64,000 bases of DNA from Batkoa obscura (Eukaryota), in contig JASVEC010000021.1 in NCBI GenBank assembly GCA_030770535.1, forward strand, positions 62,001 to 126,000, given 5' to 3'. Below, piece after piece: positions 1,815 to 64,000 of this stretch (positions within the stretch are counted from its first letter, which is position 1; each line of letters begins with the position of its first letter). A model generated the notes under the pieces. That model worked only from the letters and a program-made list of their open reading frames with translations. It was not told the origin of the DNA and searched no databases. The position numbers were made by a program, and so were the translations under genes.

Positions 1815-1920
1815 AAATGGGATATGTTTTTTTAATTCCATCACTTTCTCTATTTTTAAGCATTACTTGAGTGAAAAGGTTATTGCTAAAATTCTTAAAC
1901 AAAAAAATATACTCCCATAT
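1815..1920 (-). mobile_element. ~105 bp MITE copy
   Basis: Matches family consensus ATATGGGGATGTATTTTTGTGTTTAAGAATTTTACTAACAATTTTTCCACTCAAATAGCGCTTAAAAAATGGAAAAAGTAATGAAGTCAAAAAAAACATCCCCATAT (reverse orientation, degenerate). Confidence 0.8.
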
Positions 1921-2454
1921 ACTTAAGTTTTTTGAGCTTCTTAATCTTTTTTACTGAAAGGACACAGATGCTATTAGCTGCAATAGCAACTATCTTTTAT
2001 GCCTAAAGGGAAAGTCATTTTGTAGTAAAGTCCTTTCAGCTGCAATCTCATATCTTTATTGCTTTGGACTCAACCAAAAAAAGAATTAAAACCTAATGAC
2101 ATGCCTATTACATCTTTTCTTTACTGTTAAGTTAATATTTTTAAAAATCAATTATGTGATCATAGTATAATTTACTATATAAGATAGTATGAAACCACGG
2201 CTATCATATTTAGATATCAGACTGCCTTGGTTTTAAATAAAGCATTGTAGATAATTTCTATAAAAACTACTATCTAACTTTAACATTTATTTTTTATAAA
2301 GAAAATTTAAAACATTATAACTTATAAACTGTCTAAAGACGATTATACCACATACTATTATAAAAACTAAGTGTCATTGGATAAGTAAAAGTACAAGAAT
2401 AAACAACTACTTATATATCTACCTATTTAAATTTAAAGTTACATTCAGAATGCA

Positions 2455-2560
2455 ATATGGGGGTATTTTTTTTGGCTTCATTACTTTCCCATCTTTTAAG
2501 TGTTATTTGAGCGGAAAAATTATTAGTAAAATTCTTAAACACAGAAACGCATCCCCATAT
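2455..2560 (-). mobile_element. ~105 bp MITE copy
   Basis: ATATGGGGGT...GCATCCCCATAT, consensus internal sequence. Confidence 0.88.
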
Positions 2561-2605
2561 AGTATCCAATAATCCATTCTTTATTTGTTATTAGCTTTGA
2601 ATTTA

Positions 2606-2690
2606 ATATAGGCATTTTTTATTTAAGAATTTAATATTTTTAGAACTTTTATTAAAGTGGATAAAATTCTTAAATAAGACATCCCTACAT
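2606..2690. mobile_element. Related ~85 bp foldback element with two left-type MITE ends
   Basis: ATATAGGCATTTTTTATTTAAGAATTT ... AAAATTCTTAAATAAGACATCCCTACAT. Confidence 0.45.
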
Positions 2691-5485
2691 GCCCTTTACT
2701 GATACCGGAGTGTTTACTAGAATATCTTTTAAGTGATTGTTTGTAGCAATATAGTATTGAATATTTCGAATGAACCTTAATTCGTAATCAAGTGCATTAT
2801 GGTCACCTTTATCAACGATACTAGCTTCAGAATATGCCTTCAACTTGTTTTTCAACTTTATCTAGTGTTGCTAAAAATATAACTTCATTTCAATTTATCC
2901 ACTTTTTGAAGAGTTTAGAAAGTAAACTTTTAGCTTGAGTAATTTAAGTTCAATTTTATTATAGGATAGTCGTTTTTTTAAATGTCAATACTTTCATTGA
3001 CAAAATTGACTTAAGTTATGACATTTATAGTAGTGCTTTATTAAAGCAGTAGTATACTATCTCTCGATAGATTAGCTTTTAAATTATTATTTTTCTCAAA
3101 AGGTTGATAATTCGAGGTTGATAAAATCTCCAAACATTATTTCTATTATTTAAACGAGGATTTCAAAAAACTTTAAATTAAAATTGGTAAAGTAGGAAAA
3201 AGCAATTATCAAATTTATCTAGCTAATACCATTACTGTGTTTTTCGATTATTTTTAAAGAGAAAATATTTTGCTTTAGGTAATGATACGTTATTTTATAA
3301 AGTTACTAACAAAAATAATATAACTTAGAAAGTTTGATTTCTCATTTACTAGTGTTGATGCACCTTATTTTGAATAATTAATTGCAAAATTAGGTCCAAA
3401 TTGCTAATTAAGGTGTAGGTGGTAGCTTTTCTATTATGGTTTATAGTAACGCTATTGCCTCAAGTTCTAGATGACAGTTTTAAAGAATAAAACTCATAAG
3501 CCACCAAAATTATCAAATGAATCTATCTAAAATCTTGTTTATTACAAGTTACAAGTTTTTTATTAATTTCGAAAAAATAAAATAATGAAAAACAATGTAT
3601 TTTATTTTATTTTATTTTTTATTATTCAATGTAATTATGATAAAATTAAATTACAAATAATTTTAATCCAAAAATTTATTCTATCTTAGAGAGTACAGAT
3701 TTGTGGCTTAAACAATTAACTTCAATTAATTATACTCAATAAGGCTTCTTTATCTTAATTCCAACAATTGGAAACTATTAGCCAATAAAAGGTGGAATTA
3801 ATTAATAAGTTACTCCTACTGAATAGGTTGTCAAAATATCAAATCAAATGTAAATTCACCTTAGTGCACCTTCTTTTTATTAGATAAAACTTTATTCCCA
3901 ACTTATCTCAGTTAAAACTTGATCGGAATAAAACATCTGATTATACTTTTCGAAAATTGACAACAATTAAATACATTACGCATAAAATCTTAACAATATA
4001 TACGATAGTAACCCTTTTAAACATTATCCATGTCTTTACACTGTAGATTCACTCAAATTTATTAATTTTATTATAAATTATTGATTTGAAATATAAAGTT
4101 TTAGCATATTTAATAGGCAATTATTTTCTATTTATTTAATAAATTGGTAAGCTAGTTTCATTGGCTAATAGTTATTTGATTCTATTCTTAACCCTTGACT
4201 ATTTCTATTTTTAAATATCCTAATTTATACTTATTCTCTATTTAGCCAATCAAAGCACTGCCCTAAAGATAATATTAATTATTGCCCAAATTGATAATTT
4301 ATTAGTTAAAGTAACTTTTTAAATTTTTTTTATCCCATTTAGTAAGATCAGCCTATTTTTGTATTCCGACTAATAGATAAAATAAATAACCATTTTATGA
4401 ACCGAAATTAAAGTTTTATAAATTGAAGAGTGAAATAAACTCAGCCCAAAATTCGATGATGCTTCGTCTCACATAGTTTTACTTGTTATATAGTTATTAG
4501 TTTATATTATGATATGATTCAATGTCGTCGATATTTATTTTATAGGTAAGTCTAAAACTTAAATTAAAATCACAAGTTGCTTTAACTATTGGATATTCTC
4601 AATTAAGGAATAATCCTGTATGTAAAATTTAAGCCAATTAAAAGTTTTTTTATCAGCTTTAAATTTATTATGGCTAAGTAGTGATATTAGTTCATGTTTT
4701 AAAAAAAACTAATTAACCAATAATTTTGATAGAAATCATTACAATCTACCAATGATTTTTGGCTTTACTTTATGCTCACCTGAGTTATTAGACAACTAGC
4801 CAATCGATGTAGGCCATTACAAGCTTGACTTTCATGGTTTATGCAAAAAATGAAAGCTTTGCTTTGTGAAAATAAACCCAAAAAGGAAAAAGCTAGGCTA
4901 GAGCTCAAATTGAAATCTTTATTTTAACTGGGGTTAAAGCTAATTTCAGCAAATCCCCTCAATTTTCTCCAATTGTAAACCTTGTAAATTAATAAAAAAT
5001 AAGTACAGGCACCACTCTCTTTATCTTTTAAGCAATTTTACAATTTTATTAAACTTATTTAACATAAAACAAGTCAGCTTTGAACAAGATATTAACAAAA
5101 GACCTTTAATCAATACCCCTATTGTATCTCAGTTTATCTCAATTCAACACTTACTTTGTCCAATTAAACTATAAAGTTTTAAGTTTAGAGTAATTAACAT
5201 ACCTCAAAGACTTGGTCATTATTTTTCAAACGTACAGACGATCGATATTTAACTACTGTCACTTTAACAGTTTAATTTTATCACTATTTACATATTTGAT
5301 GAATCTTATCTAAGAGTTATAAAATCAGAGTATTATTTATTGAGCCCTTTCATTATCACAGCATAAAAACGCTATATTACTTATAGTTTATAAGTAATCG
5401 ATTTCTATAAGCACTACATTTATTTTATTTAAGGAATTTTCAGTTGTTGTTTCGATTTTAAACTATTTTGATATAAATTGTAAAT

Positions 5486-10202: not shown

Positions 10203-11667
10203 ATGTTCCGTTTATTTCAAAAGGTGGGTAATAGTCTATTCTTTTCCTCCAAACCTTCTGTCAAAACCTTCCCTTTTAATGACTTAATTTTACACACTGT
10301 CAAACTAAGTATAACCCTTTTATTAAACCTTTATGTGCCACTCTGTGTATTAAGCTTAATTTATATCTCATTAACCGGTGGTATAACGAATAACATGAAA
10401 TTAGTTATAAGTACCTACAATATAATAGAAATCTTATTTTACATTTACTGCACCATACTATACCATCAGTCAGACAATAACAAACACAGCTACAATATCA
10501 GTGAAGAGGATAGGAATAAATTAATAAGAGTATGGATTGAGGAAAAAAATTTAGATATAAATAACTTATTACGTTGGTTTAACCCAATAAATAAAGACTT
10601 GATCTCTGTTCAACAATGTCAAGAGTTCTTCGCTTGGTTATTTTATAACAATTATTTAGAAAAACTATCTGAAAAACAAAGTCAGAGTATTCAACAATTA
10701 ACAGAAAAAATTCAATTTTTATCTGGTATTTCTTTAAAGAAAGTGAATAGTGAGAAAGAGAAACGTCAAGCTATGAGACTAACTTTAGATAAATTAAATG
10801 TTTTATTTAAACCTTTATTAGTTTATTTGGTAATTTAATAATATAATATTTAATTCTATTGATGGTGTATTGATATTTATTTAGATTATATTCTTATTAC
10901 AATCAAGGATGAGCATCTTTCTATTATTAAATGGTTTTCAATACAATCACCACAACGAAAGCAAGTATTCTTATTATGTTTATGAGCCTATTAATCCAGA
11001 TAATACTAAAGACACTTTATTTTTTATCAATGGAATAGGACCAGGACTTTCTTATCTTAAGAAAATCTGTGAGTTAAAACAATCATATCCTAATCGAAAG
11101 ATTATAATGTTAGAATTGAAATATATAACAATTACACCAACAACTTATATTAACACAATTGAAGATACATTAAACTTTATGAATGTTATCTGTGAAAGAC
11201 ATAATATTCAAAAGATTTCATTAATAGGACATTCTTATGGTACTTTTATATGTTCTTGGTTAATGAAACATTGTAAAGAAAGAATAAGTAAATTAACATT
11301 AATTGATCCAGTATGTTTTTCTACTTGGGATTCTAATTTAACTCGAAATTTCATTTATAATAATCAGTTCAATTTAAAGTCCATTTTATGTGATTTAATT
11401 GTTTCTAAAGATTTATTCATCGCTAATACTATTGCTAGAAATTTTCTATGGGTAGAAAATTTATTGTTAATTGAGGACTTGGAAGATTTACAAGTCAATG
11501 TTTTTTTATCAGAGTTCGATTTTCTTATTGATAGTAGAAATGTGGAAAGCTATCTCAAGAAGAGTCCTCACTTTGGTAACAAATTAAAAGTTTCAATACT
11601 AAATGGGAATCATGGTATTTATCTTAGAAATCAAAAGTTTTTTAATACTGTTATGGCAGGCATTTAA
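10203..11667 (+). CDS. Membrane-anchored alpha/beta-hydrolase, copy 1 (469 aa)
   Basis: Exons 10203-10829 and 10885-11667 (phase-0 intron). N-terminal hydrophobic helices, oxyanion-loop motif FINGIG, nucleophile GHSYG, LIDPVCF, C-terminal D and HG. Confidence 0.88.
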
Positions 11668-15518: not shown

Positions 15519-17008
15519 ATGTTATCATCTTATAAAATCAATTTAAAATCAATATTTGTAGATTTAACTGGAAAAAGAGAAATACAAACAAAATGGATGA
15601 ATGAACGAGTATTAAAATTAATAGTTATATTATCAACTCAATTTATTAAGTTAATAACGCCGGCTGCTTTTACTGTAGGTATTTATTTAATATTTAGTGG
15701 TGGCTTAAAAAATAATAGTACATTATTTATTGGCATTTGGTGTATATTAGAAATTTATTTTTATTTTTATTGTTGGATGTTATATAGTAAATTATCAAAT
15801 AATAATAATAATAATAATAATATAAATAATAATAAAAAGAAAGAAATAGAAATTCAAGAAAAGATAGAATTAGCAAATGAAATCATAGAACAAGGTCATT
15901 TTAATCCAGAAGTTATATCGAAGTGGTTTAACCCAATAACTGAAGATTTAGTAGGATACAAACAAGCTAAAGAATGGCTATCTTGGTTAATCTATGATAA
16001 GTTTATTAACAACTTAAAATCAAATGAAAACCAACAAATCAATAATTTAATTAAGAAGATTGAATTGCATTCTAATATTATATTTCCAAAATTCAACTAT
16101 AATAAATTAAGAAAGCCAATGTTGTTAACTTTAGATCCTGTTATTGTTCAACATAAACCCTTAATTTTTTATGCTGTAAGTTTTCATTTATTTCTATTAA
16201 TATATAACGATAATTTATTTTATATTAGGCAATTGCATTAATTCAGGCCATTGCAGCTAGTTTTCTAATGTTATTAGGATTCCAACCTAATCATTTACCT
16301 AATAGTAAATATACATATTGGATTTATGAGCCTGTAAATCAAGATATAAATTCAAGTCCAATATTTTTTGTTCATGGAATTGGAATCGGATTAGCTATGT
16401 ATATTAAAAAAATATACGATTTACAACAATGTTATCCTAATAGAAAAATTATATTACTAGAATTGTCTTATATTAGTATGACTCCAATAACACAAGTTAA
16501 TTCTATTGAAGATACAATTAGTGCTTTAGATGATATTATTAAGTTACATAATTTATCCCCTTGTTCTTTTATTGGACATTCTTATGGTACTATTGTATGT
16601 GGTTGGTTTTTAAAATATCGTAGTAAATATGTTAAGAAATTAACTTTAATTGATCCAGTATGTTTTGCTGTATGGAACTCTGATTTAACTCGTAATTTCA
16701 TGTATAGTACAAGTAATTCATTTATTCATCAAATGTGTCAATTTTTTGTATCAAGAGATTTATTTATTGGTAATACCATTGGTAGAAACTTCTTTTGGCA
16801 TAAAAACTTATTATTACCTAAGAATATTAATAAGCCAACTACTGTTTATTTATCAAAATATGATTTTATTATTCATGCTCCTGATATCTTTAGTTATCTC
16901 AAACTACATCAAAATCAAAATTTTAAAGTAGCTATGATTGATGAATTAACCCATGGTGCTTATCTTATGTCCCGTACTCATTCTGATGCCATATTAAAAG
17001 ATATTTAA
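15519..17008 (+). CDS. Membrane-anchored alpha/beta-hydrolase, copy 2
   Basis: Exons 15519-16175 and 16229-17008. Motifs FVHGIGIG, GHSYG, LIDPVCF, SKYDF, THG. Same intron position as the other copies. Confidence 0.88.
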
Positions 17009-17395: not shown

Positions 17396-19471
17396 ATGAG
17401 TAGTTTCAATAATTATAAAAAAAATAAAAAGGGTAAAAAAGATGATAAAGGAGTCTTAAGCAATTTAAAAGCACCTGTTAAGATCACTAAAAAGTTAATA
17501 AAAAAAGGGTATAACAAATTAGACCTCTCAAGTAGTAATGAGGTAGCTTCACCTGTTGGTGTTAGTAAATTAAGAGCTAATAACGCTGTTCGTGCCAGTT
17601 TGATTTCTTCTCCTAATTCTAATCCTTCACTATCAAGGATGTCAACATCTAATGCTAAAAGACCTTCGAATTTAAGATTTCAACAAGGAGCTGGTAGTCA
17701 AGTGATTCAAAGTAATAATATTCGTATTAATCAATTACAAATTGATACAGAACCATTTTTTGAAGAGGAATTTAATCCACAAGAATGTGAGTTTTATTTA
17801 TTTTATTTATTTATTTATTTATTATTTTCAATAGATTTAGAAACTTTATTAGAAGGAGAACAATGGAATAATTTAAAAAGTTTTTATACTTTATTACAAG
17901 AAACATCTGAAAAAAGTAGTTTAAATTTACAATCCCATGTTTATAGAAACTATAAAGAATTTGTTAATATTTCTAAAGAAATATCTCAATTAGAAACTGG
18001 TATGTTTGAATTAAGAGATTTAATTAATGAATTACAATCTATTGGTAATTCTTTATCTAACAATTCAATTGGTTTAACTTGTAATGATGGTAATGATATT
18101 TATTTATTAATAAACTTATGTAAAATTAACAATAAGTTAGGTCTAAAGAAAAACAATAATGGACAAGCAGAAGGAGATAATACTAATGGAGGGCAAGAAA
18201 GTCTAGATGAAACTAATCGTAAAGAACTAGCTAAATTATGGAAAGCAGTACAAGGAGCTCAAGATTATTTACCTTATATTGAAGATCGACGACCATTATT
18301 AGAAAGTCCAGGATGGAAAGAATTAGATCATTCCAATTTTCGATTTAAAAGAAATGCCCATTTTTTTTTATTGACAGATAGTTTATTAGTAGCCACAAGA
18401 GCCAAAAGACAAACAATTATTGATATTAAAGCAGGTAGTGGTACAAAAATGGGATTAATGGCACGATGTTGTGTTAAATTTTCGGATATGACTTTAGGGG
18501 ATATTAAAGATTCTAATGAGGTTAAAGATGCGTTTAAAATTATACAAAAAAATGAAATTTATGTATTTTGTGCGCGTAATAAAGAAGAAAAAAAGAAATT
18601 TTTAAGAGGGGTGGCTCGAGCTACAGCAGATTATTTTCGACAAATGCATCAAAAAGCATTATTAGAAACGAGTAAAAAAGTAGGTGAAAGTTTAGAATTG
18701 GCGGATACAAAAACAATCAATTCCTTAATTAAAACGGGTAATTCTAATAATAAATCTGTACTAACTTCCGATTTTTGGGATTCTTTAGATATTGCTATTG
18801 CTCAACATAGTTATAAAGAAGCAGTGGATTTAATCTTAGAAGCTAAACAAGCTTTAAAATCAGCTTCAAAAACAATTACTAAAAATTGTAATGATATTCA
18901 AGATTTGAAACAAAGGATACAATCTTTAACAATAATTTTAGAAAAAAGAGCAAGAGTAGCACAAGATAAATCAAGTTTAAAAAAAAGTATATCCCCTATG
19001 ATTGAATTAGGTTTAATAGCTGAAGCACAACAATCTTTCTTTGATGCCCGTCACAACCATATAAAATTAAGAACTCGACAATTACCTTTAGATGGTTCCA
19101 CATATCAATATATAGCTTCGTTATCTAAATTAACATTCTCAATGATATGTACTACATGTCGTTGGCATAGTGAATTATTTTTAGAAAGATCTGTCACATC
19201 TAGATTAATTTCATGGGTAAGAAAAGAAATCATTCATTTTGGTAAACTATTTAAAAGTCAAGTATTCTCAATACCACCACCATCAGAAAGTATAATTCAA
19301 ACTTGTAAACAAGTAACGGAAAGTAATGCTCAAATTTTACATACAGTGGGATTAGATTTAAACTTTCAATTAAATCAATTACTCGCCCCTGATCAATTTG
19401 GAGATAATGAAGATTACGGTAAGGAGAATACTTTGGACTATAACTTTGGAGCTGTCATGGATGTAGCTTAA
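17396..19471 (+). CDS. EXO84: Exocyst component Exo84
   Basis: Vps51/Exo84-type N-terminal motif LQSHVYRNYKEFVNISKEISQLE, central PH domain (HFFLLTDSLLVA), Exo84_C helical region (LDIAIAQHSYKEAV ... GLDLNF). Probable introns 17787-17834 and 18090-18140. Confidence 0.9.
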   Translation: MSSFNNYKKNKKGKKDDKGVLSNLKAPVKITKKLIKKGYNKLDLSSSNEVASPVGVSKLRANNAVRASLISSPNSNPSLSRMSTSNAKRPSNLRFQQGAGSQVIQSNNIRINQLQIDTEPFFEEEFNPQECEFYLFYLFIYLLFSIDLETLLEGEQWNNLKSFYTLLQETSEKSSLNLQSHVYRNYKEFVNISKEISQLETGMFELRDLINELQSIGNSLSNNSIGLTCNDGNDIYLLINLCKINNKLGLKKNNNGQAEGDNTNGGQESLDETNRKELAKLWKAVQGAQDYLPYIEDRRPLLESPGWKELDHSNFRFKRNAHFFLLTDSLLVATRAKRQTIIDIKAGSGTKMGLMARCCVKFSDMTLGDIKDSNEVKDAFKIIQKNEIYVFCARNKEEKKKFLRGVARATADYFRQMHQKALLETSKKVGESLELADTKTINSLIKTGNSNNKSVLTSDFWDSLDIAIAQHSYKEAVDLILEAKQALKSASKTITKNCNDIQDLKQRIQSLTIILEKRARVAQDKSSLKKSISPMIELGLIAEAQQSFFDARHNHIKLRTRQLPLDGSTYQYIASLSKLTFSMICTTCRWHSELFLERSVTSRLISWVRKEIIHFGKLFKSQVFSIPPPSESIIQTCKQVTESNAQILHTVGLDLNFQLNQLLAPDQFGDNEDYGKENTLDYNFGAVMDVA

Positions 19472-20744: not shown

Positions 20745-21541
20745 TTAAACTCCCTTTAAAACAATATCTGAAAAAGTTTGACTTAAAAGATAAGCTCCAT
20801 GATTGCCGTCTAACATCATTACTTTCAATTTATTGTCAAATTCTGGACTTTTTTTAAGATAAGTTAATACATTATTACTATTAATAATAAAATCTTCTTT
20901 TGCTAAAAATACATTCACTTTCAATCCCTTTATGTCTTGTAATAATAATAAATTTGGTAGCCATAAAAAATGTCTAGCAATTGTATTAGCAATAAATAAA
21001 TCTTTAGAGATAATTAAATCACAACATATTGAAATTAATGTAAATTGTTGATTATAAATAAAATTTCGAGTTAAATTAGAATCCCAAGTATTGAAACAAA
21101 CTGGATCAATTAATGTTAATTGCTGAATCTTTTGTTTACGATATTTAACTAGCCAAGAGCATATAAAAGTACCATAAGAATGTCCTATTAATGATATTTT
21201 TTGAATATTATGTAATTCACAAATATTATCTAAGAATTTCAATGTATCTTCAATTGTATTAATATGAATTGTTGGTGTCATTGTTATATAATTTAATTGT
21301 AATAATATAATCTTTCTATTAGGATAACATTGTTTTAATTCACTTATTTTTTTTAAATAAGTAGTTAATCCAATTCCAATTCCATGAATAAAAAATAATG
21401 TATCTTTTGTATTATCTAAATTATTAGGTTCATAAATATAATATGAATATTGAGTTTCACTATCATGATTATGTTGAAATCCATTAATAAGTAAATAAAT
21501 ACTACTAATTGTTTGAATAAGACAAATTATCTAATGTAAAA

Positions 21542-21580
<39 letters not shown>

Positions 21581-22246
21581 ACTTACAATATAAATTATTA
21601 AAGGTTTCAATAAAACATTCAATTTATCTAAAGTTAATCTCATAACTTTGCGACTCTCCTTTTGCTCATTTTGTTTATTTTGTTTATTTTGTTTATTTTG
21701 TTCATTTGATAATTTAATATTTGATAATAATTGAATCTTATCAGTTAATTGTTTAATATATTGATTTTCTTTATCAGATAAGTTTTGTATATAATTATCA
21801 TAAAACAACCAAGCTAAAAATTCATTACATTGTTCAATAGTAACTAATTCTTTAGTTATTGGATTAAACCAGCGTAATAAAGTATTAATATCTAAATTCT
21901 TATCTTCAATCCATATTTGAGCTAATTGACTTCGTTCTAATTCATTCATTCTATTATTATGTTTGTTGTTATCTATTTGATTATATAATATAGAGCAATA
22001 TATATAAAATAATATTTCTATTACATTATAAATGCTTAATATTAATTTAAAATTACTTGTTATACCACCAGTAAACATTATATAAATTAAACTCAATACA
22101 CATAATGGTACGTAAAGCTTTAAGAAAATAGTTATTGATAATTTAATAGTATATAATAGTAGAACATCAAAAGGGAAAGGTTTACTAATGGAAATGTTAT
22201 TAGGGAATAGAACATTGTTAATTCTCTTTGATAAAAATTGTGACAT
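20745..22246 (-). CDS. Membrane-anchored alpha/beta-hydrolase, copy 3
   Basis: Probable start MSQF at 22246. Exons 22246-21587 and 21530-20745. Motifs FIHGIGIG, GHSYG, LIDPVCF, NHG. Confidence 0.87.
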
Positions 22247-23356
22247 TATAATGATTATAGAAAAATTATAATTATTAAGCTTATTTATATTCAATTAGTT
22301 ATTTTATTTAATTTTTGAAACTTAATTTGTACTTTTTAGTTTTCTCTTTTGTTTATCTTTTTTACATATAAAAAATGACTTTCTTAAACCAATAGTTTTT
22401 TTCAACTATTTTTTTAAGGTCATATTTGATTCTTGTTTATGTAAATGATAAATTCATATCAAATTTAATTAAATTGAGTTTCATTTTGAATATTTAGAAT
22501 TTTATAGTATAAAATTCTAACAAAGGAGTGTATTGTATATTCATAAAATTTTAACATATAAGTTATTAAAATAATTCATTTTATTTAATTTTGAATTTTC
22601 CCAGCATATTTTAGAAATTCACTATGAAATTAAATTTATAAACTTCATAAGAAGTGCTAATATTAAAAAGTTTGAATATTACTTAATAACGTTAATATCA
22701 ACTTAATTTATACTACTTGAAAACTAATTAGTATAATGTATGCATTCGTTATAATGGAATTTAAACCTCTTTAGTAAATTAAATTTTTATATTATAAAGA
22801 AAAATCAAGATAATATTATAATAAAACTACTTAATAATATCACAAAAAAACACTAAACCAAACCAACTGGTAGGTAAGAAAGGTGAACTTTACATTCAAT
22901 TTTTTTATGTACATGTTTTGATAAAGAACAATCTTGCTTCTTAAAGTAGTTTCTCAATTTAAAAACTTTCTTTATCAAAAAAATTATGTTTTTTGCGTTA
23001 ATTTTTGCTTTCATAATATTAAAACATTCAACCTAGCTTTTATAAATTTCATACTAACATGAGCGGCCTTTTGGTAAGGGCAAACTTTAAGAGCTTAATA
23101 CTATTTTTAATAACATTTCCAAACAACATACTGAATATATAAAATACAAAGAATTAATGATACGATAATGATAATGATATTTCAATAGACATTTTCTATT
23201 ACGTAGAAATTTGCTAATAGTTTGTTTGGAAATGAATTGGTAAAAGTGATATCATTTTTAAAAATAAAAACAAACATAGTATAAAAGCCAGTAGTACTAT
23301 AACAAACAAATCATAAAACAAAAACAAATTATTAAATATCAAATTAAATATTAAAA

Positions 23357-24101: not shown

Positions 24102-24205
24102 ATATGGGGCTGTTTTTTTAGTTTCACTATTTTTCCATTTTTTAAGCGCTACTGAGCAGAAAGATTGTTAGTAAAATTCTTAAACAAAAAAATATATCCC
24201 CATAT
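24102..24205 (-). mobile_element. ~105 bp MITE copy
   Basis: ATATGGGGCTGT...ATATCCCCATAT. Confidence 0.9.
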
Positions 24206-24674: not shown

Positions 24675-26163
24675 TCAAATGCCTGCCATAACAGTATTAA
24701 AAAACTTTTGATTTCTAAGATAAATACCATGATTCCCATTTAGTATTGAAACTTTTAATTTGTTACCAAAGTGAGGACTCTTCTTGAGATAGCTTTCCAC
24801 ATTTCTACTATCAATAAGAAAATCGAACTCTGATAAAAAAACATTGACTTGTAAATCTTCCAAGTCCTCAATTAATAACATATTCTGTAACCATGAAAAA
24901 TTTCTAGCCATTGTATTAGCAATGAATAAATCTTTAGAGATAATTAAATCACATAAAATGGACTTTAAATTGAACTGATTATTATAAATGAAATTTCGAG
25001 TTACATTTGAGTCCCAAATAGAAAAACATACTGGATCAATTAATGTTAATTTACTTATTCTTTCTTTACAATGTTTCATTAACCAAGAACATATAAAAGT
25101 ACCATAAGAATGTCCTATTAATGAAATCTTTTGAATATTATGTCTTTCACAAATAACATTCATAAAGTTTAATGTATCTTCAATTGTATTGATATATACT
25201 GTTGGTCTTAATGTAATATATTTCAATTCTAACATTATAATTTTACGATTAGGATATGTTCTCTTTAATTCACATATTTTTTTGAGATAACCAAACCCTA
25301 TCCCTATTCCATTGATAAAAAATAATGTATCTTTTGTATTATCTAAGTTATTAGGCTCATAAATATAATAAGAGTATCTGCTTTTAGTATGGTGATTATA
25401 TTGGAAACCGTTGATAAACATGTACATCTTCATTATTGTTTGTAGTATGGAAACAAACTAAAATAAAGATTAGTTTATTATTAATAGAAAAATATTAAAT
25501 TACCAAATAAATTATTAAAGGTTTCAATAAAACATTCAATTTATCTAAAGTTAATCTCATAACTTTGCGACTCTCCTTTTGCTCATTTTGTTTATTTTGT
25601 TTATTTTGTTTATTTTGTTCATTTGATAATTTAATATTTGATAATAATTGAATCTTATCAGTTAATTGTTTAATATATTGATTTTCTTTATCAGATAAGT
25701 TTTGTATATAATTATCATAAAACAACCAAGCTAAAAATTCATTACATTGTTCAATAGTAACTAATTCTTTAGTTATTGGATTAAACCAGCGTAATAAAGT
25801 ATTAATATCTAAATTCTTATCTTCAATCCATATTTGAGCTAATTGACTTCGTTCTAATTCATTCATTCTATTATTATGTTTGTTGTTATCTATTTGATTA
25901 TATAATATAGAGCAATATATATAAAATAATATTTCTATAAAATAATAGAAACTTGTAAACAACCTTAAATTATTGCTTATACCACCAGTTAATAAGATAT
26001 AAAGTAAACTTATTGAGCAGAGTGGTACATAAAGTGTTAATAGGAAGGTTATGCATAGTTTGATTATATGTAAGGCCATAGGATACGAAGACAAAGATTT
26101 AGCAGTAGAAGGTTTACTAGAATATAACAAATTATTAACCACTTTTTGAAATAATTGAAACAT
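24675..26163 (-). CDS. Membrane-anchored alpha/beta-hydrolase, copy 4 (mosaic of copies 1 and 3)
   Basis: Exons 26163-25504 and 25457-24675. Motifs FINGIGIG, GHSYG, NHG. Confidence 0.88.
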
Positions 26164-44376: not shown

Positions 44377-46784
44377 TTATTCATCAATATCTTCTAAATT
44401 ATTATTATTATTATTATTATTATCATTAATTTCCTCTTCATTATTCTCTCTTTCTCTTCCATTTAAATGATTTATTTGTTTATTTAATGTTGTTTCATTT
44501 TCAATAAAGGATTTATTAAGTTGATAAGTTACTGGAATTAAATTTTCTTTTGTTTCCGGTTCAATTTCAATATTATCATTCATTTTTCCATTTTTATTAT
44601 TATTAAAAGGTGTAAAATAAGAAACAAAAGTTGATTTTAATGAATTAGAAACTCCATTCAAATTATTATTATCATTATTATTGAACATATTAGTAAATCC
44701 ATTAAATGTATTATTTTTATTATTTTTAGTAATATTATTTAATGAATTATTAATCAAATTTAATTGATTAATATATTTTTTAGATTCATTTTTTAATCTT
44801 ATTTCTTCTGTTTCTTGATTATTAAATGAATTAAATTTAATGTCTATTTCTGATGGAATTTCATAATCTCCATTAAAAGTTAATTCATTTTCTCTTTTTT
44901 TATCTGAAATAGAAGGTAATTGTAATGAATTAAAATTAAAGTTCAATTTCTTAATATCATGAATTGAATTTGTTGTTGTTGTATCTTTATTAATTGAAAT
45001 ATTACTAATATTATTATTTAATGTCGTTGTTGTTCTGTTTGATTCTTTATTTTCTAATAAATTTAAATTATTAAAGGAAACTGCCATTCGATCAATCGTT
45101 TGATCAATCTCTTCATTATTATTATTAATATCCTCTAATTTATTTATCTTTATATTATTATTATTATTAAATATTCCATTAAATTTTAATTTATCTTTAT
45201 TTATAATATTTGTATTATTATAATCCTTTGATTTTATATTATCTTCAAATATTTGATTAAAATTAGTATTATCTTTTGATTGTTTATTAAATATTGGATT
45301 AAGTCTAATTTGTTCTTTACTTTCATTGTTATTTTCTTTATTAATATCACTAAATATTGAATTAAAATTAGATTTGTCATTATACATCCTTTTATTACTT
45401 GAAAATGTTGAATTTAAATTTAAATTTAAATTTTCTTTAATATTTTCATGAATACTATTTTTATTATTATTATGAAATATGGATTTAAATTCCAATTTCT
45501 CTTTATTATCTTCTTTATTTTTTATATTCATTAATGTTTTAAAATCCATACCTTCTAATGGGTTGTTTTTATATTTACTATAAATGGATTGCACTCTTAT
45601 AAATTCTTCATATTTTTCTTCTTCTGTTTTATTTTCCCATTCATCTTTATTGTTTAATTTTATTTTTGTTTTATCATCATTAAATGTAGTATCAAATATT
45701 GATTTGAAATTGGAAGTTTCATTATTATTATTTTCCAGTGTAAAGTTATTAAATAAACCATTATACTTTAACTTTCCATTCTCCATTGAGAAATGGTTTG
45801 AATTATTATTACTTCCGAACATATTATTCTGATTCTCTTTATTCATCTTATTTGAATCAGTATTATTTTTTGTTTCAATAACTTGACTTTTAGTTATACC
45901 ATTCGGATATTTAATAACCTGGATTTTTGATCCACCAAATGTATATTCTTTACTTTCAATAGGTTCTGTTAAATCATCTATTTTATTTTTATTTAAATTT
46001 TCTTGAAATTTATTTTGTAATTTATCAATTGTAAATGTTTGTGGTCCAAATAATCCATTCTTCTTTATTACTTCATTACTATTTTTGATTTTATTTGGTA
46101 AAAAATTACTTAAAAACATACTTGATCTTTCCATTTGATTTGTTTTAATTAAATCTATTATAAAATATTATAAAATATTATACAAAATTATACAGTTGTA
46201 ATAACATAATTACCTGAATTTATAACTATTGGCTTTGGATGCTTTTTTGGATTAAACCTCTCTGGTAATTTACCTAATACATTTTTGTTTCTTTGAATAA
46301 AAGTTAATACTTCAATTGGTGGTAATAAATTTAAATCTTGATAAATTTTTTTCATAAAATATTGATACTTTTCAAACAAACTTCTTAAATCAGTAAATGG
46401 ATTCTTTATCATCTCCTTTCTAATATGTAATCTAAAACTTTCATTAAGTTTCTCCAACCTCTCTTCTGCTAGTTTTATTGCAGTACCTATTTGAATTTAA
46501 GCATTAGCCACATTCCTTAATTATAATATTAATATATTAGTAAAATTAAAACACGCATATATATATATATATATAATGAATTAAATAACAGTAATTATGT
46601 CAAAACTATTTTTTATTTCTATCATGACTTATATAGTAAGAATAGATTTATTACCTTCATCTAAATCCGGATTAAAAATAGCCTTAGCATATTTAAGTCT
46701 TCCATTAGCATTGGTTTCTTCACAATCATTTTTATGACTGTTACGATCATAATAATTAACAACATATACTCTTTTTTCTGCCAT
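44377..46784 (-). CDS. Nup50/Nup2-like low-complexity Asn-rich protein
   Basis: Start MAEKR at 46784, three exons (last 46154-44377). Exon 2 has LNESFRLHIRKEMIKNPFTDLRSLFEKY, matching the Nup50/Nup2 LNxxxxxxIxxxxxxNPxxDLxxxFxxY motif. Phe-repeat tail. Confidence 0.55.
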
Positions 46785-47717: not shown

Positions 47718-47821
47718 ATATGGGGATGTTTTTTTTGATTTCATTACTTTTTCATTTTTAAGCGCTGTTTGAGTGGAAAGGTTGTTAGTAAAATTCTTAA
47801 ACAAAAAAAACATCCCGATAT
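47718..47821 (-). mobile_element. ~105 bp MITE copy
   Basis: ATATGGGGATGT...ACATCCCGATAT, inserted in a (TA)n run. Confidence 0.9.
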
Positions 47822-53593: not shown

Positions 53594-53675
53594 TGTCAAC
53601 TGTGGGGTTCGAACCCACGCCTCTCTCGAGATTGCATCTTAAGTGCAACGCCTTAGACCGCTCGGCCAAATTGAC
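53594..53675 (-). tRNA. tRNA-Leu(TAA)
   Basis: 82 nt. Acceptor stem GTCAATT/AGTTGAC, A box TGGCCGAGCGG, anticodon arm TTGCA-CTTAAGA-TGCAA, long variable arm, GGTTCGAACCC T loop, discriminator A, then a TTTT Pol III terminator. Confidence 0.97.
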
Positions 53676-56175: not shown

Positions 56176-56278
56176 ATATAGGGATATATTTTTGTGTTTA
56201 AGAATTACTAACAATTTTTATGCTCAAATAGTGTTTAAAAGATGTAAAAAGTAATAAAATAAAAAAACATCTCTATAT
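56176..56278 (+). mobile_element. ~105 bp MITE copy
   Basis: ATATAGGGATAT...ACATCTCTATAT. Confidence 0.85.
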
Positions 56279-56763: not shown

Positions 56764-56871
56764 ACATAGGGATTTATTTTTTGTTTAAGGATTTTATTAA
56801 CAATCTTTCCGATCAATAACGCTTAAAAAATGAAAAAAGTGATGAAGCCAAAAAAAAACATCATCACATAT
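56764..56871 (+). mobile_element. ~105 bp MITE copy
   Basis: ACATAGGGATTT...ACATCATCACATAT, ~55 bp downstream of the eEF2-like stop codon. Confidence 0.83.
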
Positions 56872-56926: not shown

Positions 56927-59449
56927 TTATAGCTTATTCAAATAGTCATTAGGCGATGGAATCTCTGGTTTGAGCCCTTTGCGTTCACGTATCTTAAAGA
57001 TAATTGAGGATACTAATCCAGGTTCATAAATGGAACCAGGAACTATATTCCAATGACTAAAAGTAAGTTTTAGCAAAGCTCTACCACGGGTACTCGAAAT
57101 TAAGGCTTCATGGAAACCAAATGACTCACTGACAGGTAGGTAACCTTCAAGGATAGAGACAAGATTACCTGGGCCCTCAGCTATATTTTCTATGTACCCA
57201 CGACGTTTTGATATTAGTGACTGTGCACTACTTAAAACCTCGTTTGGAACTTCAATCTCAACCAAATAAACAGGCTCAAGTAACGTCGGCTCAGCTTTAA
57301 GCTGTGATCCATGGATAACACGGCGGCACATAGGGATAATTTGATCGTCACCACGATGAATAGCATTAGCATGTAGTACAGCGTCAGTGATATTAAAACA
57401 TGTGGCTCTCATCTTCTCCCCACATAAAGCACCTTCCTTGGTCGCCCATTGAAAAGCACTATTACATGAATTCTTAATTTCAGAAAGGTATGTTATGTCT
57501 TTAGTTTCATCAACTAAAAGGTTAGTTCCAGCATCTTCTGGACCAAAACACCATATACGACGACCAGCATTGATATCCCAACCATGGTTCTCAAAAAGGT
57601 AGCGAGAGATAGCTTCATCGTCGTCTTTTGAGCTAATTTTTCCTTTCTCAATCTCTGATACAATAGACACATCTAATGGCCCTACTTTCATATAAATTCG
57701 GTTATAATTGTTTGGGGATTCAGATGAATTTGATTTTAGAGATTCAGTTTGAACTGTTTCGCAATATTGTACAGATAAGTCACTAGCTTTAATAGGTACA
57801 CCAGTATATTCTTTCTGAAGGTTATCGATAGACATTTCAAGGTGTAACTCTCCGGTACCACTAATAATATGTTGACCAGATTCAGAAGTGAAGCATTGTA
57901 CAAGTGGGTCAGACTTGGATAAACGTTTAAGGCCTTCAATTAGCTTTGGCAAATCATCAGGATTCTTAACATCAACAGCAACTTGTACTACAGATGCAGT
58001 AGAAAATTTCATAGTTTTGATGTTAAAAGCTGTTTCTAAAGTAGTAATTGTACCAGATTTGAGAAGAAATTGATCAACACCAGTAAAACCAATAATGTTA
58101 CCAGCCGGACAATCCTCGATAGACTCAAAATAATGTCCTGTCACAAGGATAGTACTCTCAATAGGTTTAATAAAAAGGTCATCATCTTTACCTGGGATAT
58201 AGTTAGGGCCTTGAATACGCACTTTAAGACCTGAGCGAGCAGTACCTGAAAAAATACGACCAAAAGCATAGAAACGGCCGCTATCAGAAATCGGTACCAT
58301 TTTAGATATATAAGCCATGAAAGGGCCATTTGGATCACATTTTCTAATAGCAGTACAGGCTTCGTCATCAATTGGCCCTTCATAAAGGGTAGCAGCACGA
58401 TACTTTTGAGCAGTAACAGGTGATGGAAGATGAATGACAGCCATCTCAAGCAGCGCATCAGAAGCAGGTAGAAATTTACGCATAACTATATTAAGTAAAG
58501 GCTTTCCATTTAACTCTTTCTCTTCATTGTTGAGTTGTATATTTAATCTTTCTAGTAGATTTTCAAGCTCACCGCGTTTAGAATTCATTACTGTGTCAAA
58601 AATACGATAAATAGGATCCAAAATTAACATATTAAAACTACGCTCCAAGGAGTTATTATCAGAAGCATTAGCTTTGGTAATCCATCTTTTGGACTCTGGG
58701 ATATAATAATAGTCGCCCCAAAGGACTTTCATAAGTTTTTCTTTATCGACACCAAATTTCTTATAATAGATTTCAGCAAACTGACGAAGAGTAAAGGCCC
58801 ATCCACCAAGACCAGAACTAAAAGCAACTGTTCCATCTTTTGCATCAACTCGAGTAGCTCCTGATTCATTATCAGTATAGGTAGAGATAGTTATATTGAA
58901 ATTATCGATTCTACGGCGTAAAGATTGATAAAGTTCTTCTTTTTCAAGTTGAAGCTCAAATATAGCACGATCTAATTTGTTTAGGACCAATATAGGCTTG
59001 ATTGCTTCAGTAAGAGCTAGACGTAAAGTGCTTTCTGTTTGTACACATAAACCATCGATACAATCCAAAATAACCAAGGTGCCATCAGTAACTCGAAGTG
59101 CATTAGCTATTCCTGTTGAGAAGCTAGTATATCCTGGCAGTTCAATTAGATTGACCAAAAATTCACCACCATTTGTTTCTTGGTTAATAATTTTCGTACT
59201 CTCCTCTGGCAATCCAAAATATAAAGGGGTAGAAGTAGATTTAGTATTATACTGATCTTGCTTATCTTGACTGACGACAGTGCCACTGGTGTTTCTAGTA
59301 TTATTTGTTGGAACGATTCTAGCCTTTGATATTAAAGAATCAACCAATGTAGATTTTCCGTGGTCAACGTGCCCTATAACAGCCACATTACGGATATTAG
59401 ATGGCTTGCCCATCATAGCACGAATGTTGTCCATAGTTAAGTTCACCAT
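56927..59449 (-). CDS. EFT2-like: Divergent translation elongation factor 2 paralogue (predicted GTPase-dead)
   Basis: 840 aa, colinear with fungal eEF2 from MV..T to the C-terminal Y.nKL. G1 GHVDHGKS, G4 NKLD and domain III LPKLIEGLKRLSKSDP are retained. G3 is ELPGY and switch I is degenerate. No introns. Confidence 0.93.
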   Translation of the reverse strand: MVNLTMDNIRAMMGKPSNIRNVAVIGHVDHGKSTLVDSLISKARIVPTNNTRNTSGTVVSQDKQDQYNTKSTSTPLYFGLPEESTKIINQETNGGEFLVNLIELPGYTSFSTGIANALRVTDGTLVILDCIDGLCVQTESTLRLALTEAIKPILVLNKLDRAIFELQLEKEELYQSLRRRIDNFNITISTYTDNESGATRVDAKDGTVAFSSGLGGWAFTLRQFAEIYYKKFGVDKEKLMKVLWGDYYYIPESKRWITKANASDNNSLERSFNMLILDPIYRIFDTVMNSKRGELENLLERLNIQLNNEEKELNGKPLLNIVMRKFLPASDALLEMAVIHLPSPVTAQKYRAATLYEGPIDDEACTAIRKCDPNGPFMAYISKMVPISDSGRFYAFGRIFSGTARSGLKVRIQGPNYIPGKDDDLFIKPIESTILVTGHYFESIEDCPAGNIIGFTGVDQFLLKSGTITTLETAFNIKTMKFSTASVVQVAVDVKNPDDLPKLIEGLKRLSKSDPLVQCFTSESGQHIISGTGELHLEMSIDNLQKEYTGVPIKASDLSVQYCETVQTESLKSNSSESPNNYNRIYMKVGPLDVSIVSEIEKGKISSKDDDEAISRYLFENHGWDINAGRRIWCFGPEDAGTNLLVDETKDITYLSEIKNSCNSAFQWATKEGALCGEKMRATCFNITDAVLHANAIHRGDDQIIPMCRRVIHGSQLKAEPTLLEPVYLVEIEVPNEVLSSAQSLISKRRGYIENIAEGPGNLVSILEGYLPVSESFGFHEALISSTRGRALLKLTFSHWNIVPGSIYEPGLVSSIIFKIRERKGLKPEIPSPNDYLNKL

Positions 59450-61056
59450 AGTTTAATAAAGTTAAAAAGCCGTGGTAACGTTTGAATACCAACCTTTTAT
59501 ATTTTACGAAAAATTAGTGGTAACTTTTGCATCATCGACTTTGGTATTTCAGACGTGATATTAATTGGAATTCTCATGTAATCTATCCCTTATTTTTCCT
59601 TTTTTGTTTCCAAATCAACTATTATCAGATTTTGTATGCAAGTATGATTTAATCTATTTTTCATTGAAGCATTACTCAGTTGTAGTTTGGTTTTTTGGTA
59701 GCTTTTCTGGTGATATGATGCTTGACTGAGATAGAAAACAAAAAAGTTTTTAATATTATAAATTAACAACTAAAACACAATCTTATAAAAAATATATGGA
59801 GAAAAAAGATCTTCTGCTCTTTGTTTTAATACTCTATAGCTTTTTCTAAATAAAGTTATATTACTTCAAACAATGTAATTGTTGTTTATTGATCTATTTT
59901 AAGTAATTTTGAGTTATCCAGTTCTTTCATAGCTATAATACCTGTTCTTATTAATATGCTTTGTTTTTTAACAATTGATTAAATAAGCGATTTATATTTC
60001 TAATAGCCTTAAGTTATATCTTCAAGCTAACCTTTCCAACATCGAAATTTTATTTAGCTTTTATTCTTTTTAAAATTCAAGGCTACAAATTTTTTTATCA
60101 TGTTCAGTGGTTAAACCAACATTGCTGAATTCAAGGTGGAGATAAATCAGGGATTAAATGACCTTTAAAAGAGTGTAAAGTGGGATTCGCAGTAGAGGAT
60201 CTAAGACCATATCAAATTTTCTAGATTAACTCTTCGGAAAGTGTCCTACAGTATAAATAGTACTAATTTATGGCGAATTTTTGGTTTTAAATTCCTGAAA
60301 TCTTTGAAAAGTGGAGTTTGGTACAGTGAAATTTTTCTTTAATATAGTTCTAGCGTATTATAAAATAAAATTAATATACTTTTTAAGACGCACTTATTAA
60401 GACACACTTATTAAGTGAAAGCATGATCGATTAAGATCACAATAGTATATCAGCTACTATGATTTATGCTATTTATAATTGAAGCTCTTTTTATCAATTT
60501 TTAATAACGATTTATTCTTTAAAATTCTTGACCTTGTGTTCTTAAATAATTTATTAATACAATTAAAGAAAATTTGAAGAGAAAAGAGTGTCAAAAGCTA
60601 AAGCTTCTCGTTCGCTCCAGTTCTGCGATAAATTCACTTTGTTAATGAGGAAATCATTTTTCCACTTAATTATCTGGTACATATATGAAGAGGAGAATTG
60701 TGTAAGGCAGCTCCAAATGGAGGGGAATCAATATTGACTTTGTAGATGGTCTAGGATATTGGTAAATTAAAACTGAAAACAAACACGATATAAAACAAGT
60801 TGAGATAACAATCAAAGTAATTGATTTTATAGAAAAATTGAAGGAATCCTTTGAATATAGAGAAAGGATTTGACTGTCAGAGGTATTTAACCAGAAGACA
60901 AATAGAAAACCAACGATTTAAGCCAATTATAAATTTAGAAAACATATTTCTTAGTTTTACAAATTATTCCTTGAATACAAACGTTTTGAATAAGGAGAGT
61001 ATTGTATTAGTAATATCAGATACTTACTTTCAAGAAATATCAATATTTTTGGATTA

Positions 61057-61161
61057 ATATGGAGATGTATTTTTTGTTTAAGGATTTTGCTAACAATCTT
61101 TCTGCTCAAATAGTACTTAAAAATGAAAAAGATGATAAAACTAAAAAAGACATCCCCATAT
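61057..61161 (+). mobile_element. ~105 bp MITE copy
   Basis: ATATGGAGATGT...ACATCCCCATAT. Confidence 0.88.
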
Positions 61162-61210: not shown

Positions 61211-61315
61211 ATAAGGGGATGTATTTTTGTATTTAAGAATTTTACTAACAATTTTCCCACTGAAATAGTGCTTAAAAGATGGAAAAAGTGATGAAGCCAA
61301 AGAAACATCCCCATA
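61211..61315 (+). mobile_element. ~105 bp MITE copy
   Basis: ATAAGGGGATGT...ACATCCCCATA. Confidence 0.9.
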
Positions 61316-62553: not shown

Positions 62554-64000
62554 ATGTTTGAATCCAAACTGATTATTGAGTTGTTAAGCGAATTAAGTGG
62601 AGTGAGAGTAGATATTAAAAATCCCCATAATTTTCATTCACCATTAAATATCATATTATATGTAATAATAAGGTTTATAAAGTTGATAGTACCAATTTCA
62701 ATAATAACAATACTTTACAATATCTATTATGGAATCAACACTAACTTATCACTAATTCTACTCATTTTAAGTGTTAATGAAGTGGCTTTTTTTATTTACT
62801 TTAAATATTTAAATAAAAAAATGGTACTGAAAAGAAAAGAATTTAAGTTTGATCTAAACGAAACGGACAAACAGAAGATAGTTTCATTACTATTTGATGG
62901 AAATTATTTTGATTTAAGCTTGATAAATAAATATTTTTATCCATACTCAAATGAAGAACTTACGTTTAATCAGGTAAAGCAATGGCTAGCATGGTATTTA
63001 CATGTACGCGATTTGAATAGTTTATCAAATGAAATGGATATGGAATTGAACGAATATGTTGAGTTAATACAAACGAAACTTGATATAAAATTAAGTAAAG
63101 AGGAAGACAAATTACAGCGTGCTCCTGTGTTTCTGGCTTTGACTGAATTTAGCTCAAAGTATAAGCCCATTTTATTTTATTTGGTAAGTTACTTGTACAA
63201 AGTATTATCAACTATTTATTAATTTTTAACTTAGACAATTATGTTATTTCACACTTCAATGTGTATAATATTAATGCTCTCTGGTTTCCAAAGAAATTCA
63301 ATAAAAAATTCCCCGATAACTTATTGGATATATGAGCCACATGAAAATCTTTCTGATAATAACAGTAGTAATGACGAACCACCAATATTATTTATACATG
63401 GAGTAGGTACAGGTGTATCATTATACATGCGCCAAATTTTAAAATTAAGAACTGACTTTCATACTCGTAAAATTGTTTTATTAGAACTTCAAGCAGTGAC
63501 TTTAATCCCTACTTTACAAATACCAACTGTTGAAGATATAATGTATGCGCTAGATAGTGCATTTCAACTTCACGAAATTGAAAAATGCTCAATAATGGCT
63601 CATTCTTATGGTACAATTGCAACTAGTTTTATATTAAAACATCGTCCATACTATATTCAAAAAATGTGTCTAGTTGATCCAGCTTGCTTCACTAATTGGG
63701 AACCTACTTTTGCGGTCAATTTTATGTTTAATCAATTAGATTTTTTTATGAATAGGGTTACTCAACACTTGATGGCAGAGGATTTGTTTGTTGGTAACAC
63801 TATAGGCAGATATGCTATCTTAAATCAAGGAATTGCTTTTAACCAAGATTTAAATGTACCCACCTATGTTTATTTATCTAAATACGATTTTTTACTCAAC
63901 TCTAATTATATTATAAGTCATTTAACAGAATTGAGAGTAAAACTCAACAATTCGAATATCAATTATTATATGTTGGACTTAACTCATGGCGCTTATCTCT
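62554..64000 (+). CDS. Membrane-anchored alpha/beta-hydrolase, copy 5 (more distant; runs off window end)
   Basis: Exons 62554-63183 and 63235->64000. Motifs FIHGVGTG, AHSYG, LVDPACF, SKYDF, THG. Same phase-0 intron position as copies 1-4. Confidence 0.87.

Follow-up and report, generated by a model that had tools for sequence, protein, structure and literature searches.

A divergent eEF2 gene and its surroundings

The 64,000-nucleotide (nt) stretch of the Batkoa obscura assembly GCA_030770535.1 analyzed here (contig JASVEC010000021.1, positions 62,001 to 126,000 of the forward strand; the window) contains, at 56927..59449 on the minus strand, a gene for a divergent paralogue of the translation factor eEF2, designated P0001. 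According to the open reading frame (ORF) list and its translation, the gene is intronless, its one ORF running without interruption through 840 codons to the stop codon. Taken together, its motifs, its alignment with other eEF2 proteins and its retained frame point, on balance, to a GTPase-dead relative of the translocase. All coordinates are positions in the window, and those of features within P0001 are on the minus strand.

P0001 has the domain order of the eEF2/EF-G family (G, II, III, IV, V) and resembles its members along the full length of the protein. The Pfam models GTP_EFTU (5.4e-31), EFG_III (2.4e-13), EFG_IV (5.7e-25) and EFG_C (2e-20) all matched past their cut-offs, and the domain 2 models stayed under theirs. 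The best matches among solved structures were the eEF2 proteins of Chaetomium (7old_C, 1043 bits) and yeast (1n0u_A, 1004.7 bits, E = 2.5e-301), and a residue-by-residue alignment to 1n0u_A placed residues 1-840 of P0001 colinear, end to end, with yeast eEF2 1-842. The old eEF2 paralogues scored far lower (Snu114, at most 534 bits; EFL1, 336 bits), and assignment of P0001 to either was ruled out by these bit scores together with its length of 840 amino acids (aa) and its colinearity with eEF2. An AlphaFold model computed from 116 sequences (mean predicted local distance difference test score [pLDDT], 76.1; predicted template modelling score, 0.55) supports the overall fold only, its confidence being low at residues 27-32, 45-71 (pLDDT <50) and 106-111; an earlier model from 11 sequences was unusable (pLDDT 38.4). 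When the later model was compared with the PDB by Foldseek, eEF2 chains ranked first (E ~1e-102).

The divergence of P0001 was measured against 115 other eEF2 proteins, which were collected by homology search and aligned (MAFFT) to give 479 columns with at least 95% conservation. Identity of P0001 to the column consensus was 58.5%, with differences at 41.5% of all positions, whereas the other 115 averaged 86.4% and none fell below 79.4%. At the 479 conserved columns P0001 departed from the consensus 140 times (others: mean 3.7, maximum 21) and retained 71% of the columns. By domain, with limits that we take to be those of the yeast crystal-structure literature, the departures amounted to 51/148 in G, 11/50 in G', 13/81 in II, 17/57 in III, 26/103 in IV and 21/39 in V, so that domain V was enriched in departures (Fisher p = 0.0008 versus the rest) and domain II was depleted (p = 0.0046).

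Two eEF2 proteins, both with canonical motifs, are annotated in Neoconidiobolus thromboides: P0004 (KAI9293406.1) and P0007 (KAI9296994.1). In a maximum-likelihood tree of 21 sequences P0001 fell beside P0004 (support 90/74), and its terminal branch, at 3.4 substitutions per site, was about 26 times as long as the median one (0.13). It shared 10 of the 34 departures of P0004, compared with 3/29 for P0007, 3/21 for P0005 and 2/22 for P0006. Since 11 of the 51 departures of a divergent Rhizophagus sequence also recur in P0001, part of the sharing is homoplasy. We infer that P0001 arose by lineage-specific duplication of a P0004-like gene. P0004 and P0007 are themselves only 81% identical, and P0004 departs at 9 near-invariant columns, where the average is 3.7, which shows that eEF2 had already undergone duplication and divergence in this lineage. 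An Exo84 ORF in the window (17396-19471, plus strand) is identical to its N. thromboides FSU 785 counterpart at 592 of 594 positions outside a 16-aa intron read-through and, judged by this neighbour, the P0001 gene sits in an N. thromboides-like genome. The two canonical annotated proteins and the Exo84 match to the same species together make "paralogue" the right term for P0001. The read-through arises where the ORF runs across 48 nt that the annotated N. thromboides model treats as an intron; introns here are short, and P0001 has none.

Around the gene, a TATA-like sequence, TATAAAAGG (59493..59501, minus strand), ends 43 nt 5' of the P0001 ATG, and AATAAA motifs lie 128-258 nt past the stop codon, all of them recognized as sequence features only. 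No poly(A) tract, a retrogene hallmark, was present 3' of the stop codon. The gene is bracketed in direct orientation by two copies of a 90-nt dispersed repeat, one at 56766..56855 (plus strand), 71 nt past the stop codon, and one at 61059..61148 (plus strand), about 1.6 kb upstream of the ATG. These two are the closest pair of copies (79% identity), and the flanking repeats might be linked to the origin of the gene copy. The AT-rich family to which they belong has further copies of about 90 nt at 56178-56267 and 61215-61304 and also occurs at 24159-24193 and 47776-47810 on the minus strand; its 35-nt core gave four matches at three or fewer mismatches, against none expected from shuffled sequence.

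The window as a whole is AT-rich, with a G+C content (GC) of 0.17-0.34 per 2 kb. Ordinary genes surround that of P0001, namely a cyclic-nucleotide phosphodiesterase, several alpha/beta-hydrolase ORF pairs, Exo84, an amino-acid transporter and a BCKDH-kinase-like gene. The repeated ORF pairs, of about 210-250 aa, lie at 10203-11667 and 15519-17008 (plus strand), 20745-22294 and 24675-26163 (minus strand) and 62554-63999 (plus strand). Those at 10203-11667 and 24675-26163 each combine an ORF without a Pfam match and an Abhydrolase_1 ORF, those at 15519-17008 and 20745-22294 likewise contain an Abhydrolase_1 ORF, and the pair at 62554-63999 is similar in size but without a Pfam match; taken as a set, the pairs resemble copies of a single two-exon gene, forming a dispersed or tandem family. 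A 585-aa ORF without a Pfam match (44377-46134, minus strand; GC 0.183, and 0.104 at third codon positions [GC3]) occupies the most AT-rich part of the window, 38-46 kb, where GC is 0.17-0.18. The sole transfer RNA (tRNA) gene in the window is a tRNA-Leu (anticodon TAA) at 53594-53675 on the minus strand.

GTPase apparatus and ribosome-facing residues of P0001

The motifs that hold the nucleotide were retained. The P-loop (G1), GHVDHGKST, residues 26-34 (59348..59374), is kept save for A26G, with H27 to T34 as in 114-115 of the 115 others; G4, NKLD, residues 157-160 (58970..58981), is kept in the alignment with the 115 eEF2 sequences; and N158, K159 and D161 of NKxD, the SGL of G5 and Val28 are also in place. 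Guanine-nucleotide binding by P0001 is plausible because the P-loop, NKxD and SGL are kept.

The switch and catalytic elements were changed. Switch I, residues 44-72 (59234..59320), has been rewritten, with a one-residue deletion and the substitutions R55S, D58V, T59V, R60S, E63K, R66Q and I68N; positions 55, 60 and 66 are arginine in all 115 other eEF2 sequences. In G3/switch II, residues 103-116 (59102..59143), P0001 reads ELPGYTSFSTGIAN where the canonical sequence is DSPGHVDFSSEVTA, with the catalytic His108 changed to Tyr and the DxxG Asp to Glu; ELPGY replaces DSPGH, of which D, S and H are each found in 115/115 of the others. The domain II hairpin IESTILVTGHY, residues 430-440 (58130..58162), has His for yeast Arg440 and Ser for yeast Arg433, and D548E is a conservative change. 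H108Y, D104E, S105L, R55S, R60S, R66Q and R440H all stand at positions on which 113-115 of the 115 other sequences agree. His108 and Val28 are named as catalytic residues in PMC4861600, and His108 likewise in PMC8789840, where Arg55 is presented as a built-in arginine finger and Arg60-Asp548 with Arg440 as a relay joining switch I to domains III and II.

Two features expected of a translocase are thus lacking from the G domain and its contacts: the catalytic His of switch II with the DxxG Asp, and an intact switch I with Arg55 and the Arg60-Asp548/Arg440 relay (R55S, R60S, R440H and the one-residue deletion). Retention of the fold, as evidenced by the GTP_EFTU match, combined with loss of catalytic residues (H108Y, D104E, R55S) is the pattern by which a pseudoGTPase would be recognized.

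Domain V of eEF2 docks on the 60S subunit and the tip of domain IV enters the A site. In P0001 the domain IV tip loop SESPNNYNR, residues 576-584 (57698..57724), shows yeast K578E, K582N and H583Y and keeps Pro580; domain IV helix A, DDDEAISR, residues 609-616 (57602..57625), shows yeast K613E and R615I and keeps R617; and the diphthamide loop LHANAIHRGDDQ, residues 692-703 (57341..57376), keeps His694, His699, Arg700 and Gly701 (yeast numbering) together with the changes D696N, G702D and G703D. Domain V, residues 726-799 (57053..57274), is the most rewritten domain, with 21/39 conserved columns changed; among its changes are EQRPGTP to AEGPGN, Y744Q (yeast numbering; codon at 57221-57223) and Val754 to Ile. 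K582N, H583Y, K613E, D696N, G702D, G703D and Y744Q again stand against 113-115 of the 115 other eEF2 sequences.

Roles for several of these residues have been described. Lys582 touches a phosphate of a tRNA-like helix (PMC4861600), and His583 stacks on Pro580 and contacts the anticodon strand (PMC4861600; PMC4896748); the domain IV loop motif is given as SPxKHN (PMC6143161; PMC4861600). At the codon-anticodon duplex, diphthamide receives help from Asp696 and His583 (PMC8674143); K613, R617 and R631 make up a basic cluster over 18S h33/h34, and Y744 stacks on A1270 of 25S H44 and V754 on H43 (PMC4896748). P0001 reads SPNNYN and so lacks the Lys582 and His583 of SPxKHN that a translocase would be expected to have (K in 114/115 and H in 115/115 of the others), and at the diphthamide motif HxDxxHRG it reads HANAIHRG, which preserves the two His, the Arg and the Gly and has Asn for the Asp and Asp for each of the next two Gly. 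The contact residues retained in P0001 are Pro580, His694, His699, Arg617 and Arg631.

Of the functional residues named in these papers that fall in columns with at least 95% conservation, 10/15 were changed, among them the RNA contacts K582, H583, K613 and Y744, a higher proportion than the 0.292 of conserved columns in general (binomial p = 0.003). The set is small and was assembled with the list of departures already known; adding Asp696 makes it 11/16. The RNA-contact subset had 6/10 changed (p = 0.042) and the GTPase/relay subset 5/6 (p = 0.0097). Read from these motifs and column counts, the main lesion of P0001 is in the GTPase catalytic and switch apparatus and in domain V.

A working translocase is therefore very unlikely on the motif evidence. 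A full-length colinear ORF with its P-loop and NKxD kept is what such a protein would show, and resistant spare copies of drug targets are a known fungal theme, so that P0001 might be imagined as a translocase that still works with an atypical active site and perhaps serves as a drug-resistant spare. We consider this scarcely credible because His108, Arg55, Arg60, the DxxG Asp, K582, H583 and Y744, invariant or nearly so in the 115 others, are all changed, and no biosynthetic gene or cluster was found in the window.

The original prediction, made from the letters alone, had concentrated on the ribosome-contact surface, and the substitutions that it listed relative to yeast were all present in the alignment to 1n0u_A: SDKGRF to SDSGRF, PGKKDD to PGKDDD, IQRVVLMMGRF to IESTILVTGHY, SKSPNKHNR to SESPNNYNR with loss of His583, DDFKARAR to DDDEAISR, LHADAIHRGGGQ to LHANAIHRGDDQ, and EQRPGTP to AEGPGN. 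The four segments that it described as conserved were also there, as was His698 of P0001 (codon at 57356-57358). The listed changes are not ordinary variation, because 113-115 of the 115 other eEF2 sequences agree at these columns. They are, nevertheless, a selection from a protein that is changed throughout, since the part of P0001 that the prediction covered was no more altered than the rest (departures at 64/228 versus 75/250), and the strongest lesions, those of the G domain, lie outside it. In addition, the yeast hairpin IQRVVLMMGRF had been taken as simply RNA-facing, which does not fit the description of Arg440 as an intramolecular relay contact beneath switch I (PMC8789840).

The proposal that the surface had been systematically neutralized or reversed in charge did not hold. 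The net charge of P0001 is -14, compared with -6.3 ± 1.9 (range -11 to -2) in the 115 others, and negative shifts were found in domains G' (3 versus 7.4), II (-1 versus 2.7) and IV (-5 versus -0.4), but the G domain moved the opposite way (-6 versus -10.9). At columns with at least 95% conservation, basic residues were lost no more often (20/72) than acidic residues (12/55; Fisher p = 0.54) or than other residues were changed (101/352; p = 1.0), and the net shift of -12 at conserved columns lay within two random-column nulls (mean -5.4, standard deviation 7.9, P = 0.22; mean -7.9, standard deviation 5.1, P = 0.24). Selective removal of basic residues was rejected on these class-loss counts and nulls.

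On the charge pattern the original prediction had built an off-ribosome mimic of eEF2. Its premise of a paralogue stands, as does the view that translocase work by this protein is very unlikely, and what fell away is the selective loss of basic residues; the observation was real, the charge pattern was over-read, and the interpretation is half right. The more specific proposal was a decoy, in which the retained diphthamide His would soak up toxins, sordarin-type antifungals, or eEF2 modifiers or chaperones. His694, His699, Arg700, Gly701 and the overall fold are indeed kept while translocase function appears lost, and the fungus, being both soil- and insect-associated, could plausibly meet such agents. 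Retention of His698, however, is uninformative, because with 71% of conserved columns kept it is expected by chance, and the neighbours that assist diphthamide are changed (H583Y, D696N, G702D, G703D), so that modification or recognition of the His is uncertain. A solved exotoxin A-eEF2 complex was reportedly published in 2005 under the title "ADP ribosylation by ribosome mimicry"; if, as that title suggests, the toxin uses the ribosome-facing surface, losing the surface would also weaken toxin binding. Toxins are, moreover, enzymes that turn over, and a stoichiometric sponge would be a weak defence against them. The toxin/antifungal decoy has no specific support, and we regard it as highly improbable.

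The rewritten 60S-facing parts bear on another possibility, a ribosome-bound brake or hibernation factor, in which a hydrolysis-dead eEF2 copy would fill the factor site of ribosomes that are idle or stalled, such as those of spores, and be unable to cycle off. On 80S and 60S particles, the main hibernation factor is reported to be canonical eEF2 (PMC13541302), lost hydrolysis could favour long residence, and P0001 is better preserved in domains II, G' and IV than elsewhere. In the same source, however, binding to the 60S subunit (at the sarcin-ricin loop, and of uL14 to the switch-I helix 55-66) may be the predominant contact that stabilizes eEF2 (PMC13541302), and in P0001 these contacts are rewritten (switch I, switch II, Y744Q, and 21/39 of domain V). 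Two Asp have also been added at the domain IV tip, the part that enters the A site. A role of this kind thus appears unlikely compared with that of a non-catalytic protein acting outside the translocation cycle.

Retention of frame and fold

Several observations indicate that the P0001 frame and fold have been kept. Under simulated neutral, AT-biased mutation, none of 300 replicates remained stop-free at 15, 25 or 33% amino-acid divergence, the mean number of stops being 9.9, 16.4 and 21.7, respectively, in a simple model that lacked indels, began from the present P0001 sequence and used the base composition of the flanks. Retention followed the conservation of the column, falling from 74% at invariant columns through 65, 55 and 40% to 23% in successive conservation bins; only 12 of the 75 conserved Gly/Pro columns were changed; and relative to the consensus at conserved columns there was one single-residue deletion only. 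GC3 of P0001 was 0.258, equal to the highest value among six neighbouring ORFs (0.104-0.258). The open frame and the conservation-graded retention therefore indicate that selection kept frame and fold while the translocase-specific machinery was given up.

These results also bear on whether P0001 is a duplicate becoming a pseudogene under relaxed constraint, functionless and with its frame open by recency or luck. Lost catalytic residues and a terminal branch about 26 times the median are what such decay would produce, and the protein is missing from the annotated proteome in the protein collection, with no orthologues found in searches. Neutral decay nevertheless cannot explain the open frame: no replicate kept 840 codons open even at the lowest divergence simulated, the retention gradient, the spared Gly/Pro columns and the solitary deletion do not resemble relaxed constraint, domain II has changed significantly less than the rest, and GC3 lies at the top of the neighbours' range. 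We therefore hold a decaying pseudogene to be rather unlikely.

The explanation that we favour, with moderate confidence, is that P0001 is a selected, GTPase-dead pseudo-translocase, that is, a very fast-evolving extra gene of the eEF2 family whose product would act as a non-catalytic, eEF2-shaped binder outside the translocation cycle. Such a protein would keep the five-domain eEF2 layout and the nucleotide-binding motifs and would likely still bind guanine nucleotide. With His108 replaced by Tyr, the DxxG Asp by Glu and Arg55 by Ser, the sarcin-ricin loop would be predicted to fail to activate it. Docking on the GTPase-associated centre would be poor because of the rewritten switch-I helix, Y744Q and the 54% change in domain V, and docking in the decoding site would be poor because of K582N, H583Y, D696N and the GG-to-DD change. 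Selection would then keep the fold and the frame, most likely for a role as a non-catalytic binding partner off the translocation cycle.

Several points weigh against a selected pseudo-translocase. Nucleotide binding, loss of GTPase activity and weak ribosome binding are all read from motifs, and Tyr or another residue might conceivably stand in for the catalytic His, a possibility raised for Ser360 of Ski7 (PMC4509514). The composition of P0001 fails a homogeneity test and its branch is very long, so that its placement in the tree is uncertain, and the neutral simulation has the simplicity noted above. The exact sequence was absent from a collection of 15 billion proteins, none of 7994 scored candidates was a relative closer than 60% identity, and a word-based search with the rewritten switch region (residues 36-125) gave 134 candidates, none with E <= 0.001, a weak negative. 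A metagenome scan with six P0001-specific peptide patterns produced 59 pattern matches and one relative, designated L001, which is not an orthologue. None of these searches yielded an orthologue.

L001 is a very divergent 854-aa eEF2 with 39% identity to P0001 and canonical AHVDHGKST, DSPGH, NKLD and HADSIHRG motifs, and it was set apart from P0001 on account of these motifs and this identity. Its intronless gene (1001-3565, plus strand) lies on a 292-kb metagenome contig, and the protein probably serves as the functional eEF2 of a fast-evolving eukaryote.

Comparison with known derivatives of translational GTPases

The closest points of reference for P0001 are the canonical fungal eEF2 proteins (yeast EFT1/EFT2, PDB 1N0U; P0004 and P0007), with which it shares architecture, length, colinearity to the C-terminal KL and 58-60% identity, as well as the P-loop, NKxD and the diphthamide His-Arg-Gly. 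It differs from them at 140/479 near-invariant columns, including His108, the DxxG Asp, Arg55, Arg60, Arg440, K582, H583, D696, the GG-to-DD change and Tyr744, which stacks on the GTPase-associated centre. The "eEF2 paralogs" of the Emw1/TTC27 paper are EFT1/EFT2 and so are irrelevant to P0001.

Few eukaryotic proteins are as constrained as eEF2, and a copy with 29% of near-invariant sites changed, the catalytic His among them, over 840 open codons amounts to a natural experiment. Should P0001 prove not to be expressed, it would be no more than a duplicate that is slowly dying. Its interest is moderate pending support from expression and conservation. In an insect-associated fungus, a GTPase-dead eEF2 look-alike with its diphthamide His in place could also serve as a stoichiometric trap for eEF2-directed agents or enzymes, such as ADP-ribosylating toxins, compounds of the sordarin type and the machinery of diphthamide synthesis or of eEF2 kinase, or as a brake parked on resting-spore ribosomes; we think either quite improbable, although if true it would make P0001 the first pseudo-translocase known from eukaryotes to regulate or protect. 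Among the papers on eEF2 paralogues and pseudoGTPases surveyed by title and abstract, none describes a non-catalytic derivative of eEF2 from a fungus.

By its motifs, P0001 is a putative pseudoGTPase derived from a translational GTPase, as in kinds already known. Among these, Ski7, the Hbs1 paralogue of budding yeast, has Ser360 in place of the catalytic His, still binds GTP and acts as an adaptor (PMC4509514). Ski7, however, belongs to the eEF1A/Hbs1-type subfamily and has an added N-terminal region with known partners, whereas P0001 has no extension. The ancient eEF2 paralogues Snu114/EFTUD2 and EFL1/Ria1 re-use the eEF2 fold outside translocation, and Snu114 has been discussed as a GTP-bound, non-cycling module (PMC7192624). 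Snu114 structures fit the predicted model of P0001 in overall shape (template modelling score, 0.74-0.76), but P0001 lacks the N-terminal extension of Snu114 and groups inside fungal eEF2, next to P0004. Archaeal aEF-2p is likewise encoded by a second EF-2 gene beside a bona fide EF-2 and is described as an unlikely translocase (Narrowe et al. 2018, PMC6143161). Its pattern is the opposite one, G1-G5 being kept while both domain IV loops and the diphthamide His are lost (PMC6143161); P0001 has lost catalytic and switch residues and kept the His, is eukaryotic and is confined to one lineage, and so does not have the features of the archaeal type. If it is expressed, P0001 would join Ski7, Snu114 and aEF-2p as a non-catalytic derivative of a translational GTPase, the first of eEF2 itself that we found described for a fungus, and would show which parts of the eEF2 fold are re-usable once translocation has been given up.

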